A DNA stretch of 64,000 nucleotides from an uncultured Anaerolineae bacterium (GTDB lineage Bacteria; Chloroflexota; Anaerolineae; JAADDB01): the NCBI GenBank assembly GCA_964402285.1, contig CAYOAZ010000071.1, positions 29,209 to 93,208 on the forward strand. The letters are read 5' to 3'. The notes under the pieces are model-generated. The model ran no database searches. It saw only the letters and a program-made list of their open reading frames with translations, and was not told the origin of the DNA. Below are positions 559-4,268 of the stretch, piece by piece; within the stretch, counting starts at the first letter, position 1; every line of letters starts with the position of its first letter. A program made the translations under genes and the position numbers.

Positions 559-1671
559 TCATCCTCGTTCGTCGGTAGCGTGAGTGTGGCCGTACAGTTC
601 TTTCAAGGCCGGGTGTACGATTTCCCCGTGTTGGACGTTGATGCCTCGGGCGAGGGCCGGGTGTTGTTTCAACGCGTTCTCCAGCCCTTCGTTGGCAATG
701 GCACAGACAAAGGGGAGTACCGCGTTGCTGATGGCATGTGTGGCCGTGCGGCCTACCACTCCGGTGATGTTGGGGACACAGTAGTGAATGATGCCGTCAA
801 CAACATAGGTGGGCATGTCGTGACTGGTGGGCCGACTGGTTTCTGTGGCTCCGCCCTGGTCAATGGAATAATCCATGATTACTGTGCGTGGACGCATCAG
901 AGCGAGCATGTCGCGGGTGATGATGATCGGGGCCCGGTATCCAGGCTTGTACACGGCTAGCATGACAACATCAGCAAACTGAATCACTTTGCGTATGTTG
1001 TGCCGCGTGGCGCTCAGGGTGACGACTCGCCGGTCGCTGTAATGTTCCAGGCGCTCCAGCGCGCGGGGGTTCACGTCCAGCGCGTACACGGATGCGCCTG
1101 CGTACGCGAAGGCCAGCGCGGCTTCGGATCCCACTGTGCCTGTTCCTATGATGACGACTTCAGCAGGGGCGACGCCGGGTACTCCCCCCAGGAGAATGCC
1201 CTTTCCCCCCGCGTCGTTGCGCAGTAGACGGCTGGCAATGTGGGGGGCCATGCGTCCGGCCATCATGCTGATGGGGTGGAGCACAGGCAAGTACCCATCG
1301 TCTTCCTGGATGGTCTCGAAGCCGATGACGGTGACCTCGCGTTCCAGGAGGGCCTGGACTTTGTTGGGGTGTGCGGAGGCCAGGTGCATGAAGGCCATCA
1401 GGATTTGCCCTTCAGTCAGGAGGTCGATTTCCTGCTGGAGGGGACGGGCGACCTTTACGACCAGATCGCCTCGGCGAAAGGCCTCTTCGTGGGAATAGAC
1501 CACCGTCGCACCGGCATCCAGGTAATGTTGGTCTAGAAACCCTGATCCTTCCCCCGCGCCACGCTCCACAAACACGCGGTGCCCCCGGTCCACCAATTGT
1601 CGAACTGCAGCCGGTGTCAGGGCCACCCGGTACTCAGCAGGACGTCGTTCTTTAGGTATGCAGATGTCCAT
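559..1671 (-). CDS. ald: Alanine dehydrogenase
   Basis: 370 aa with an AlaDH/PNT N-terminal domain and an NAD-binding Rossmann motif (VVIIGTGTVGSEAA); full-length similarity to Ald. Confidence 0.9.
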   Translation of the reverse strand: MDICIPKERRPAEYRVALTPAAVRQLVDRGHRVFVERGAGEGSGFLDQHYLDAGATVVYSHEEAFRRGDLVVKVARPLQQEIDLLTEGQILMAFMHLASAHPNKVQALLEREVTVIGFETIQEDDGYLPVLHPISMMAGRMAPHIASRLLRNDAGGKGILLGGVPGVAPAEVVIIGTGTVGSEAALAFAYAGASVYALDVNPRALERLEHYSDRRVVTLSATRHNIRKVIQFADVVMLAVYKPGYRAPIIITRDMLALMRPRTVIMDYSIDQGGATETSRPTSHDMPTYVVDGIIHYCVPNITGVVGRTATHAISNAVLPFVCAIANEGLENALKQHPALARGINVQHGEIVHPALKELYGHTHATDERG

Positions 1672-1853
1672 TTACGGCCTCCCCTTAGAGTCCACCTCTT
1701 GTGGACTTTCCCTTGCCGATGTTTACTATAGTCCTCCCCGCCCAATTCCGTCCATGATCTGGGACATAATGGACGAGGGGAGCAATTTAGCCTCTTCGCT
1801 TAGGGTAGCGCATCTTCCACGCTATTCCTCTGGGCTATTTTGGGTTTGCCGGG

Positions 1854-3026
1854 TTATCTAAGTAGGAATTCGGGTGCTAACTGCTCTTCGGGTAAGGATT
1901 TTTCCAGTGGGAGGTGAATGTGCACCTCGATATCCAGTTGCGAGAGATACCGACACATAAGCGGTCCAACTTCTGCCCAATCCAATCCCCCCAGCCCACA
2001 CCCTAACGCTGGCAACGCCAAGGATTCGATTCCCTCTTGTTTGTAGTTATCCACAATCCATTGCAGGCCTTTCTCGATGTCTTCGATACGTGAACGTTCC
2101 CGCCAATGTCGTTTTGTGGGGAAAAAGAGGAACCAGGTTCGACGATTCAAAGTAATGGGGTTGGGTACGTCATCTGCCAGAAGCGCATCTAATGAGCCTT
2201 CTCGTTTGTAGAGATAGGGTTTGCCTGGCCGAATGTCACCTCGGCGACAAGCATCTTGGTAAACAACATAGGCATCAGGGAATTGATACTTTGCTCGCGA
2301 GGCCAAACCTTTCCCCATTACACCTACTGTGTTAACGCTGATGGTTAATGTTTGCATACGGGAGAAGAACATATCGCCTTCGATTAACTTAAGTCGCGGC
2401 GTCAATATTCGTTCACGTTTAGGCTCGAAGAACATTTCGGGTTCGGGAACGACCGAAATGTTCCGAGCGATTTGTTTCACAAGGGCGCGAACTCGTTGTG
2501 CTACTGTGTTGTTGGCCACGTAAATACTGTGAATGTATTCAGGGGGAATATGGCCGGGGACCAATACTTCAGCCATAATGCGTCGCTTACTTCCGTCAAC
2601 TTCGCTCCACCAAGTGACGTCGACACCCTCAAGGATTTCCTTTTCGTACTGTTTCCAATACCTCGCTGTCAGGATTTTGGTTTCCGAACGGGCTGCATTT
2701 CCTGTGGTGAAACAAACTCCCGGTAATTTCAACACGGTCTTGGAGATGCCGAGCACTACAATTTCTTCCTTATCCCTTTCAATTAGTACTCGGTACAACA
2801 TGGGATTCCGTGCTCGGAAGTAGACATTCGCATATTGCCACAGGGAGAGCCCATGAGGGGTCGTAATCTCGCGACGCCAGGAGACAATGCCTTCATCATA
2901 AATGGAAGTTGTAGGAATGCCTCTGCTCTCGATGAGCGCGTGAGATAAAATGCCGTGTTGTAGAATGGACACCAGATTGTCCACATGAGTAATGTAATAG
3001 AATTCCCGAAAACGCCTTCGGCCCAT
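1854..3026 (-). CDS. Fusion protein: DarT-like DNA ADP-ribosyltransferase domain (DUF4433) at the N-terminus, DarG-type macrodomain at the C-terminus.
   Basis: N-terminal DarT hallmarks: YYITHVDNL, YANVYFRARNPMLY, CFTTGNAA, and AEVLVPG carrying the ARTT glutamate. C-terminal DarG macrodomain hallmarks: VNTVGVMGKGLA, FFPTKRHWRERSR, ALPALGCGLGGLDW. The ORF-track start is a TTG at 3050; an ATG at 3026 (MGRRRF...) preceded by GGGTGA is preferred. Confidence 0.75.
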   Translation of the reverse strand: MGRRRFREFYYITHVDNLVSILQHGILSHALIESRGIPTTSIYDEGIVSWRREITTPHGLSLWQYANVYFRARNPMLYRVLIERDKEEIVVLGISKTVLKLPGVCFTTGNAARSETKILTARYWKQYEKEILEGVDVTWWSEVDGSKRRIMAEVLVPGHIPPEYIHSIYVANNTVAQRVRALVKQIARNISVVPEPEMFFEPKRERILTPRLKLIEGDMFFSRMQTLTISVNTVGVMGKGLASRAKYQFPDAYVVYQDACRRGDIRPGKPYLYKREGSLDALLADDVPNPITLNRRTWFLFFPTKRHWRERSRIEDIEKGLQWIVDNYKQEGIESLALPALGCGLGGLDWAEVGPLMCRYLSQLDIEVHIHLPLEKSLPEEQLAPEFLLR

Positions 3027-3116
3027 GAAAATCACCCTGGTTAAATTCAAACACTTTTTGCCCTTATTTTACCATGGCCTCTCCCGGGCCCCAATCCGGC
3101 ATGTCGTGGCCCATTC

Positions 3117-3980
3117 TCACATCACATATGTTTCCACGATCTTCCTTTCCACATCTGTGACCACGCGGGCAATTACCCGCACGTAAGGGGCTATGGTCGA
3201 ATTGTGCAACTTGCGCCGTAGCAGGTTATCCACCTGAAAGATGCCCGCGGAGTTCGCCATTACGATTTCCACTTCCACGGGGATATCGCCTCCCGCGCGA
3301 ATGTGGACCGCGTCAATGGCCTGCGCGGACACGGAATGGATGTTCACATCCCCCGATTCAAACGCAATGCGAGAACGACCATGGGTCATGTCCAGCGCGT
3401 CCGCGACCTTGACCACGCTGGCTTCGGTGGTGTAACAGCGCACATCCCAATGATGGGCAATAATGGCATGGAGCACTTCGGCCATGATGATGGTGCGTTC
3501 CCGTACGGGGTAAATACCTGTCAGGAGTTCCCGAGCCTTGGATTGGGCCAAGATGAGGCTGAATTCCTCGTGATTCTCCCGGTGGATGGCAATGCCCACG
3601 TCGTGAAGAGCCGCGGCCAGCACGGTCACCACTTCCGCGTCCTCGGGGTCCAACCCGTGATCCTTGACCACGCCCAGGGGCACTTCCGCGTCCGCCAGCA
3701 GGCGCAGGAGTTTGAGGGCCAGGTTCGCCACGATCTTAATGTGCACCGGACCGTGGTCACTCATCCGGTTTCGGTCCACCGCGTTGACGTTCGCACAGCG
3801 CCAGAGTTGGTAGAGTTCCTCGTCCCGGTTAATTGCATCCACCAGGGCCTGCAAGCGTTCATTGTGCCGGGCTGGAACGGTGAAGTACACCCGTTCCCCG
3901 GCTGCGATCTTCTGCTCGTCCTCCGCGATCGTCTGCGGCGAGAGTTCCTTTTCCGCTTCTGCGTTCTGTCGTTTGCCCAT
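3117..3980 (-). CDS. HD-domain metal-dependent phosphohydrolase (YfbR/5'-nucleotidase-like HD fold)
   Basis: H..HD..H..H..D motif series: SDHGPVHIKIV, LHDVGIAIHRENHEEF, LHAIIAHHWD, KVADALD. GGGAGG RBS 7 nt upstream of the ATG. It lies immediately upstream of and co-directional with the DarT-macro gene. Confidence 0.7.
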   Translation of the reverse strand: MGKRQNAEAEKELSPQTIAEDEQKIAAGERVYFTVPARHNERLQALVDAINRDEELYQLWRCANVNAVDRNRMSDHGPVHIKIVANLALKLLRLLADAEVPLGVVKDHGLDPEDAEVVTVLAAALHDVGIAIHRENHEEFSLILAQSKARELLTGIYPVRERTIIMAEVLHAIIAHHWDVRCYTTEASVVKVADALDMTHGRSRIAFESGDVNIHSVSAQAIDAVHIRAGGDIPVEVEIVMANSAGIFQVDNLLRRKLHNSTIAPYVRVIARVVTDVERKIVETYVM

Positions 3981-4268
3981 TCACAGCCTCCCATGTGATG
4001 GTCTTGCAGGCGGGCGAAGCCCGCCTGCAAGACGCGGCGTTCCTGTTCTTCCCAGTGTACCCTGTAATGGGCCCGGGGAAAACCTGGGGCGTCCTACGAC
4101 TCCCGTTGCCCTTGCCCAATTCGTGCCTGGGGTTGTTTCCCGCGGCCAGTCATCACCCGAAAGGGGGACAATCGCTTCCCCCCACGGGCCACGGGGTATC
4201 CCTCCTCGAACGTTCAAACCAAGGCCGAGAGGAGGTGTTCCGCCCTCGGCCTTGGCGTCTGTTCTTGG

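Follow-up and report, generated by a model that had tools for sequence, protein, structure and literature searches.

Among the closest known systems to the gene examined here are the two-gene DarTG2 toxin-antitoxin and phage-defence systems of Thermus aquaticus, M. tuberculosis and EPEC (Jankevicius 2016, PMC5179494), in which the DarT toxin and the DarG antitoxin are separate polypeptides and DarG carries a C-terminal DarT-binding domain. Residues listed for Thermus aquaticus DarG include T79, K80 (the catalytic lysine), H82 and W83, and the Thermus DarG macrodomain on its own suffices as antitoxin (PMC5179494); that paper makes no mention of a fused or single-polypeptide form. In DarTG1, DarT1 is paired with a NADAR antitoxin, and this system is guanine-specific (PMC11543638). 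A single-chain form is represented by PDB entry 7OMU, released in 2021 under the deposited title "Thermosipho africanus DarTG in complex with ADP-ribose", and the Thermus sp. 2.9 DarT structures 7OMV-7ON0 were deposited alongside it in the same year. The paper behind 7OMU is reportedly Schuller et al. 2021 (Nature 596:597). That a natural fusion was already known is evident from this PDB entry and the title under which it was deposited; in the accessible full-text literature, a scope outside which the 7OMU paper falls, we found no description of a natural DarT-DarG fusion, and the accessible literature likewise yielded no report of activity, toxicity or phage defence for any single-chain DarTG.

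The locus analysed here lies in a 64-kb window, meaning the whole stretch of DNA under study, and its features are collected in Table 1. The DarT-macro open reading frame runs unbroken on the minus strand from an ATG at 3026 to a TAA at 1854-1856 and encodes 390 aa plus stop; the motifs AEVLVPG, FFPTKRHWRERSR and ALPALGCGLGGLDW are each found in its product. Whereas canonical two-gene DarTG consists of separate, adjacent darT and darG genes, this is one continuous frame, and no second DarT- or DarG-like ORF was found within the 64-kb window, in agreement with an earlier note on this DNA that had reported no separate antitoxin gene nearby. The same note had assigned both a DarT and a DarG-type macrodomain to a single polypeptide, and Pfam, PADLOC and structure matches show that both assignments are correct. 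A sequencing frameshift or chimera was considered and ruled out, since an identical protein occurs in assemblies from separate sources (three contigs carry the same 390-aa sequence, the two given here being from an ENA metagenome assembly and from a Logan assembly of run SRR8542060) and hundreds of homologs have equal length, with the ~390-aa architecture common to the best 120 database matches. As read from its sequence, the gene genuinely fuses DarT to a macrodomain eraser and is unbroken, both catalytic centres being intact.

Table 1. Coordinates of the single-chain DarTG gene, its parts and its neighbours, in positions of the 64-kb window.
Feature	Positions	Strand	Basis or remark
Single-chain DarTG gene	1854..3026	(-)	ORF, Pfam, PADLOC, end-to-end PDB 7OMU match, AF2 model
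DarT domain, residues 10-200	2427..2999	(-)	Pfam PF14487 and structural match
E153 codon, ARTT catalytic glutamate (AEVLVPG)	2568..2570	(-)	Alignment to Thermus DarT and 7OMU
Inter-domain linker, residues 201-212	2391..2426	(-)	Alignment A1 and pLDDT
DarG-type (TARG1-like) macrodomain, residues 213-377	1896..2390	(-)	PADLOC DarG, 5M31, structure match
K305 codon (T-K-x-H-W motif), counterpart of the catalytic Lys80 in Thermus aquaticus DarG	2112..2114	(-)	5M31 alignment and PMC5179494
Lineage-specific low-GC segment, ~1.34 kb	1771..3112	(-)	blastn vs L083, 49% GC
HD gene	3117-3980	(-)	287 aa, Pfam HD E = 8.6e-7
ald	559-1671		Downstream of DarT-macro gene

The protein matches 7OMU end to end (residues 5-389 to 22-404, 56% identity, E = 1e-143), and its AF2 model superposes on that structure over both domains (386 columns, TMq 0.87, TMt 0.90). 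The two proteins are alike in domain order, length, linker, position of the catalytic Glu (mutated to Ala in the 7OMU crystal construct) and macrodomain Lys. They differ in host (Thermotogota versus a Chloroflexota-like metagenome genome) and in genomic context, but are the same in kind. This end-to-end homology, with an identical two-domain arrangement, places the gene among single-chain DarTGs of the 7OMU type, and we conclude that it is a further member of a known family, one that is widespread and for which a crystal structure has been solved. The earlier note had called the fusion undescribed, which does not hold, since a 56%-identical ortholog had already been crystallised and the architecture is widespread.

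Profile searches and structure prediction, which the earlier note had proposed as checks, bore out its domain assignments, placing the N-terminal domain in Pfam DarT and the C-terminal domain in DarG-type macro. For the DarT half, PF14487 (DarT/DUF4433) matched over its whole profile (positions 1-201 of 201; 164.4 bits, cut-off 22.5; E = 3.7e-48). In the AF2 model this half has a DarT/PARP-like fold that superposes on Thermus sp. 2.9 DarT with TMt 0.81 and an rmsd of 2.9 A, and on E. coli C7 DarT1 with TMt 0.61, so that on the predicted structure it is nearer DarT2 than DarT1. The residue that the note had picked out as the ARTT glutamate, E153, aligns with the E160A site of Thermus DarT 7OMV and with the Glu-to-Ala site of 7OMU, the catalytic position of crystallised DarTs, and is Glu in 119 of 120 homologs. 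Two-gene DarTG2 likewise has a DarT fold with an ARTT Glu, but the DarT sequence here is very divergent from it (E = 1e-5 to 1e-7, ~25% identity; 2e-7 and 6e-6 against the characterised DarT2 proteins, to which the half is also ~25% identical), and its score of 100.2 bits misses the NCBIfam toxin_DarT equivalog cut-off of 150. Homology to the DarT1 of DarTG1 is also distant (E = 9e-5), with a poorer fold match than to DarT2, and the antitoxin half here is a macrodomain, not NADAR. Because the DarT half is distant in sequence from characterised DarT1 and DarT2 proteins, base specificity is uncertain.

The C-terminal half is matched by Pfam Macro and by two DarG models, each over its N-terminal part only: PADLOC DarG at model positions 3-149 of 329 (E = 5e-50) and NCBIfam DarG (NF048014) at positions 2-152 of 338, with 160.7 bits against an equivalog cut-off of 250. 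Because these models match solely in their macrodomain half, the DarG C-terminal DarT-binding domain is absent, as had been proposed, and the protein stops 13 residues past the macrodomain. As in two-gene DarTG2, the macrodomain is TARG1-like, with catalytic Lys and ADP-ribose-binding loops, and it matches the Thermus aquaticus DarG macrodomain both in sequence (5M31, E = 5e-27) and in the AF2 model (5M3E/5M31, TMt 0.88-0.90). T304, K305, H307, W308, N232, K239 and G342-G346 map onto T79, K80, H82, W83, N22, K29 and G117-G121 of that protein. Of 120 homologs, all have Lys at the K305 position and all keep N232, and 119 keep G342, G344 and G346 of the G342-G346 loop. Judged by this conservation, both catalytic centres are under purifying selection. 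Unlike Thermus DarG, the macrodomain contains a conserved insertion of ~14 residues (about residues 278-292). Between the two halves, E195, P196, F199, F200 and P202 are invariant or nearly so in alignment A1, and pLDDT is 85-92 over residues 181-210 of the AF2 model. The linker, together with the PEPxMFFxP motif before it, is conserved and, as modelled, apparently rigid, not floppy.

The most likely candidate function is that of a single-chain enzyme of the DarTG2 type that stands alone, moves horizontally and serves as a toxin-antitoxin or in defence. We are fairly confident that the protein is a stand-alone single-chain DarTG of the macrodomain-linked "DarTG2-like" branch, in the Thermosipho africanus subfamily, with a cis-antitoxin mechanism and with no relation to the HD gene. 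With NAD+ as its substrate, the N-terminal DarT domain would attach ADP-ribose to a base in single-stranded DNA. The likeliest target would be thymidine, given that the eraser is a macrodomain of the DarG type and that the fold resembles DarT2 more closely than DarT1. The tethered macrodomain would strip the same adduct through its TARG1-like K305 and so act as antitoxin in cis, with no need for the C-terminal DarT-binding domain that two-gene DarG has. DNA would then become modified on balance solely when the balance of writer and eraser tips, for instance during infection, and this would be predicted to block replication of phage or host DNA.

A different proposal, built on the earlier note, was that the HD phosphohydrolase and the DarT-macro protein form a new three-activity operon, in which the writer/eraser works with a nucleotidase partner under control of a palindrome. 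The arrangement at this locus is as the note described it: the HD gene ends exactly 90 nt upstream of the fusion gene on the same strand, and ald is the next gene downstream. No intrinsic terminator was detected between HD and the fusion. However, the adjacency is confined to this lineage. Among the best 80 other DarT-macro loci, a survey that the note had also suggested, none carries a homolog of HD within 6 kb to either side of the fusion gene, and for neither flank does the list of the top 25 Pfam families include HD. In the closest relative genome (L083), HD and Ald are 95% identical to those here and the gene order is the same, but HD adjoins ald without a DarT-macro gene, and a second genome (L084) likewise has HD directly beside ald and lacks the fusion there. 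Locus L091 carries the fusion upstream of ald, but the gene end upstream of the fusion is not that of HD. HD orthologs elsewhere occupy varied housekeeping contexts, beside coaBC, PolX or ald, and the HD gene has a GC content of 59%, close to that of ald (59-60% for the pair), versus 48.5% for the fusion gene. No solved-structure relative of the HD protein was detectable by sequence. The palindrome exists and is unique in the window, but its stem is not the 13 bp given earlier: it has perfect 15-nt arms (4001-4015 and 4019-4033) around a 3-nt loop. It sits next to the HD ribosome-binding site, and because the HD start codon follows it by ~20 nt it belongs to the HD leader and not to the DarT-macro gene. 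We conclude that HD is a resident gene, functionally unlinked to the fusion, and we regard a joint operon as extremely improbable. Had the locus been an undescribed DNA-modification module of HD, DarT and macrodomain, as first put forward, it would have represented a new system; the evidence rules this out.

Comparison with L083 also delimits what is specific to this lineage. The low-GC segment contains the DarTG gene alone, bordered by 86 nt on its 5′ side and 83 nt on its 3′ side, and stands in place of the ~126 bp HD-ald spacer of that genome; the blastn breakpoints against L083 fall at 3113 and 1713, and the right edge was set by eye at ~1770. Direct or inverted terminal repeats of at least 10 nt are absent from the segment edges, where there is only an AAT microhomology, and no integrase or transposase was found near the DarT-macro gene. 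Sensitive blastn and tblastn searches of the L083 spacer for a fusion-gene remnant gave chance-level matches only, a result compatible with gain here as well as with loss from L083. Across 71 loci the fusion gene is poorer in GC than the DNA flanking it, with a median difference of 7.9 points, and the neighbours of the 80 loci include no recurrent partner gene. We conclude that the DarTG gene moves horizontally as an autonomous unit and has no functional link to HD or ald.

Such mobility could also mark a passenger in decay or a selfish addiction module, in which a mobile single-chain DarTG persists and stabilises itself or the DNA around it but confers no host benefit such as phage defence. 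Its sporadic distribution, low GC, movement as a single gene, absence from the closest relative and insertion amid housekeeping genes all fit this explanation. Most of the 80 loci are surrounded by housekeeping genes and not by obvious defence islands, which counts against the defence reading. However, post-segregational killing is not easy for a cis-fused toxin-antitoxin, because both halves share one half-life. Moreover, strong conservation of both active sites across phyla, with fusions from Chloroflexi and Thermotogae 55-58% identical, argues for selection on function, and a minority of the 80 loci (~10%) have restriction-modification or Abi-type neighbours (Eco57I-type methylases, ResIII-type helicases or AbiEii-like ATPases). 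We therefore consider a purely selfish element unlikely, and favor a mobile DarTG2-type toxin-antitoxin or defence enzyme.

The distribution of the family bears on whether the enzyme might instead be a physiological regulator outside defence, marking host ssDNA (or RNA or protein) reversibly to control replication or repair, its two domains forming a tuned writer/eraser pair. A single polypeptide houses both activities and has an apparently rigid, conserved linker, as such a regulator might have, and growth control has been proposed for two-gene DarTG (PMC11543638). However, relatives occur in only 301 of 185,579 species-level genomes, and a core regulator would not typically be so patchily spread, carry a signature of horizontal transfer or be missing from the nearest relative; nor is there a conserved regulatory partner. 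A regulatory role thus seems very unlikely compared with the toxin-antitoxin or defence role. The fused architecture itself forms ~25-30 separate clusters at 50% identity, and the best 80 loci are all near-full-length fusions, spread over many phyla of bacteria and also present in three archaeal MAGs.

What the survey yields, then, is a fused form that is common, travels as a lone low-GC gene, has highly conserved active sites and brings no accessory gene. It is possible, if doubtful, that the single-chain DarT-macro clade is a functionally distinct class of DarTG, a suggestion based on its ~25% DarT identity to characterised DarT2, rigid conserved linker, clade-specific conserved macrodomain insertion and lack of both a DarT-binding domain and a partner. 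Members of the clade might have a base or substrate specificity unlike that of DarT1 and DarT2. By analogy with CapRel, they might also be autonomous one-protein immune sensors and effectors in which a direct trigger switches the eraser off. CapRel too joins a toxin and a neutralising domain in one chain and is a single-gene mobile defence candidate, and its antitoxin domain combines steric inhibition with phage-protein sensing (PMC9712102). The likeness goes no further than analogy; folds and chemistry are unrelated, and the cis domain here is predicted to be a modification-reversing enzyme. The family makes a clean one-gene setting in which to ask how activation overcomes an eraser that is covalently tethered, a question that bears on fused toxin-antitoxin immunity generally.

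Searches for other elements returned nothing from Rfam at gathering thresholds over the whole window, and a promoter and terminator scan gave a site count no higher than in shuffled sequence. The sole promoter-like site lies on the minus strand at 1754-1725, in ald-proximal DNA that is common to L083.

The fusion gene encodes its DarT and macrodomain halves in a single frame. Its product matches the entire Pfam DarT profile (1-201/201) over residues 10-200, scoring 164 bits where the cut-off is 22.5, and Pfam also found a Macro domain; residues 213-377 are matched by DarG models over positions 3-149 of 329 (PADLOC) and 2-152 of 338 (NCBIfam). Because the DarG models match by their N-terminal macrodomain halves only, the protein lacks the C-terminal domain by which canonical DarG binds DarT, and the earlier note was right in describing a 390-aa ORF that joins a DarT to a macrodomain without this domain. 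There is no second DarT- or DarG-like ORF within the 64-kb window. An alternative TTG start at 3050 would add 8 residues; homologs align from the ATG instead. The frame is continuous in an identical 390-aa protein on three contigs, and the two places shown differ in source (ENA and Logan). An assembly artefact was rejected on the strength of this identity between sources and of database relatives with the same architecture, the best 120 of which are mostly 385-421 aa long and 54-83% identical to the fusion.

Features of the fusion locus
Feature	Window position	Strand	Size	Remark
ald	559-1671			downstream of fusion gene
Fusion gene	ATG 3026 to TAA 1854-1856	minus	390 aa	unbroken ORF
Window-specific segment			~1.34 kb	carries fusion gene; break in homology to closest relative, L083
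HD gene	3117-3980	minus	287 aa	ends 90 nt upstream of fusion gene
Palindrome	4001-4015 / 4019-4033		15-nt perfect arms	~20 nt upstream of HD start
Second hairpin	4219-4255		11-bp stem	directly past synthetase stop codon

Catalytic residues are conserved in both halves. E153 is the ARTT glutamate, aligns with the Glu-to-Ala position of crystallised constructs and is kept in 119 of 120 homologs. The Thermus aquaticus DarG residues N22, K29, T79, K80 (catalytic), H82, W83 and G117-G121 (Jankevicius et al. 2016, PMC5179494) have aligned counterparts in N232, K239, T304, K305, H307, W308 and G342-G346, with K305 present in all 120 homologs. Mean identity among these homologs is 70% for the macrodomain half versus 52% for the DarT half. 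The Thermus DarG macrodomain on its own rescues DarT toxicity (PMC5179494), which is a direct precedent for a fusion lacking the C-terminal domain.

The novelty claimed for this architecture did not survive comparison with solved structures. A PDB sequence search matched residues 5-389 to 7OMU (406 aa, E = 1e-143), deposited as "Thermosipho africanus DarTG in complex with ADP-ribose" and released on 2021-06-23 alongside Thermus sp. 2.9 DarT structures. The same entry was the best structural match, over both domains, for an AlphaFold2 model built with 25 homologs as input (mean pLDDT 85.5, pTM 0.80; TMq 0.87, TMt 0.90, 56% identity). The DarT-macro fusion is thus an already known kind of protein, an ortholog having been deposited under the name DarTG. 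The macrodomain is closely related to the DarG/TARG1 type (Thermus aquaticus DarG macrodomain, E = 5e-27, TMt 0.88-0.90). The sequence of the DarT half is remote from those of characterised enzymes, namely Thermus DarT2 (E = 2e-7), M. tuberculosis DarT (E = 6e-6) and E. coli DarT1 (E = 9e-5), and its fold is closer to DarT2 (TMt 0.81) than to DarT1 (TMt 0.61). Relative to Thermus aquaticus DarG, the macrodomain carries an insertion of ∼14 residues (window 2151-2204, residues ∼275-292), whose pattern SLDxxLADxxxxL...N is kept across the fused family and whose region was modelled at very low confidence (pLDDT <50, residues 278-295); the insertion may form a functional, flexible loop particular to the single-chain clade. 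The linker motif PEPxMFFxP is conserved across the aligned homologs and, together with the confident model, suggests a fixed geometry between the two domains, which could be compatible with either autoinhibition or coupled catalysis.

The HD gene, proposed earlier as a possible partner, is not a partner of the fusion. A phmmer search with the HD protein against all ORFs of 82 loci returned the window's own contig only. No partner gene recurred when neighbours up to 3 kb away at 80 fusion loci were clustered all against all; the largest cluster, an Eco57I-type DNA methyltransferase at 7 of the 80, echoes the frequent placement of two-gene DarTG within restriction-modification operons (PMC5179494). 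At these seven loci (L016, L019, L045, L049, L050, L051 and L066) a ∼530-aa Eco57I-type N6-adenine methyltransferase lies ∼7-30 nt from the fusion on the same strand, as at L050:7180-8778. When the closest long ORFs flanking the fusion (69 upstream, 74 downstream) were assigned to Pfam families, HD did not figure in either side's list of the 25 commonest; the most frequent were Eco57I (6), Helicase_C (4), ResIII (3), MmeI_Mtase (3) and AAA_21 (2), and the rest were assorted housekeeping genes. The HD protein is a member of a large, well conserved Chloroflexi family; its orthologs adjoin coaBC, PolX or ald in other genomes, and no relative of solved structure was detectable by sequence. In L083 and, independently, L084, HD and Ald are each 95% identical to those of the window, and all three share the order citrate synthase, NTP-transferase/PGM, acyl-CoA synthetase, HD, ald, acetyl-CoA hydrolase; in both relatives the HD-ald gap is 228 bp and holds no DarT-macro gene. 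What remains of the earlier interpretation is the domain content, and the HD-DarT-macro locus reduces to another single-chain DarTG of a sort already known.

Nucleotide homology to L083 breaks off with the stop codon of HD (window 3113); blastn picks it up again at 1713, inspection by eye at ∼1770. The intervening segment is 49% GC, versus 59% for HD and 60% for ald. The closest homolog of the fusion (83% identity, locus L091) likewise has ald immediately downstream, so two lineages whose Ald proteins are 82% identical have this slot filled, and a 95%-identical relative has it empty. The gene before it (L091:1-209, ending ...RIMARVAERLGKNNDRG at the stop) does not match the C-terminus of the HD family, and no remnant of the fusion gene was detectable in the L083 HD-ald spacer. 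The pattern fits acquisition upstream of ald before the lineages split, with later loss in the L083 lineage; it also fits more than one gain at the same site. Under either history, HD was not co-inherited with the fusion.

The palindrome reported upstream of HD exists, but with 15-nt arms rather than a 13-bp stem. It occurs once in the window, adjoins the HD ribosome-binding site GGGAGG and belongs to the HD leader. The acyl-CoA synthetase-HD intergenic region (window 3981-4268) spans 288 nt versus 61 nt in L083. Neither the palindrome nor the second hairpin is followed by a T-run; the pair could comprise an operator or attenuator, and a terminator. A single sigma-70-like site (1754-1725, minus strand) lies upstream of ald in DNA shared with L083, and no Rfam family matched across the whole window.

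Single-chain DarTG is autonomous and mobile. Relatives occur in 301 genomes among 185,579 species (one genome each), with a near-full-length fusion in every one of the best 80, which comprise members of Chloroflexota, Thermotogota, Acidobacteriota, Planctomycetota, Bacteroidota, Ignavibacteria, Aquificota, Cyanobacteria, Nitrospirota, Sumerlaeota, WOR-3, KSB1 and three archaeal MAGs. When representatives at 50% identity were searched exhaustively, full-length fusions matching in a single stretch fell into ∼25-30 separate clusters, and longer, more divergent fused forms also turned up. A frequently transferred gene typically has lower GC than its flanks, and the family fits: at 71 loci across phyla with >3 kb of flank, the median shortfall of the fusion gene is 7.9 points, with up to about 20 points at L037 and L036. 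Such a deficit throughout the family points to frequent horizontal transfer or to a constraint on composition. The archaeal copies (L063, L068 and L070; MAGs labelled Bathyarchaeota/Bathyarchaeia and Halobacteria) are full-length and 54-56% identical, which suggests inter-domain transfer provided that MAG binning is correct. At L057:6382-7185 (Terriglobia) the longest fusion-matching ORF is just 268 aa, while the tblastn match covers residues 1-389; this copy may be frameshifted or pseudogenised.

What the data show is architecture, fold, conservation of catalytic residues, autonomy and mobility. For activity, target base, a role in defence and its trigger, we infer that the fusion would act as a one-protein DarTG2-type module, in which the DarT domain would write ADP-ribose on a base of ssDNA, probably thymidine, and the tethered macrodomain would erase the adduct through K305. 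The cell would be protected in cis until the balance of writer and eraser tipped, probably in phage infection, whereupon modified DNA would block replication.

Among the best 80 IMG/VR relatives, ∼75 match the macrodomain only (residues ∼200-385): these phage-encoded DarG-like macrodomains stand alone, in agreement with published phage counter-defence against DarT. The only same-clade full-length fusion in this set (L092, 56% identity) lies at a contig end, and in four other viral contigs (L096, L121, L125 and L129) the fused forms are divergent, at 34-37% identity.
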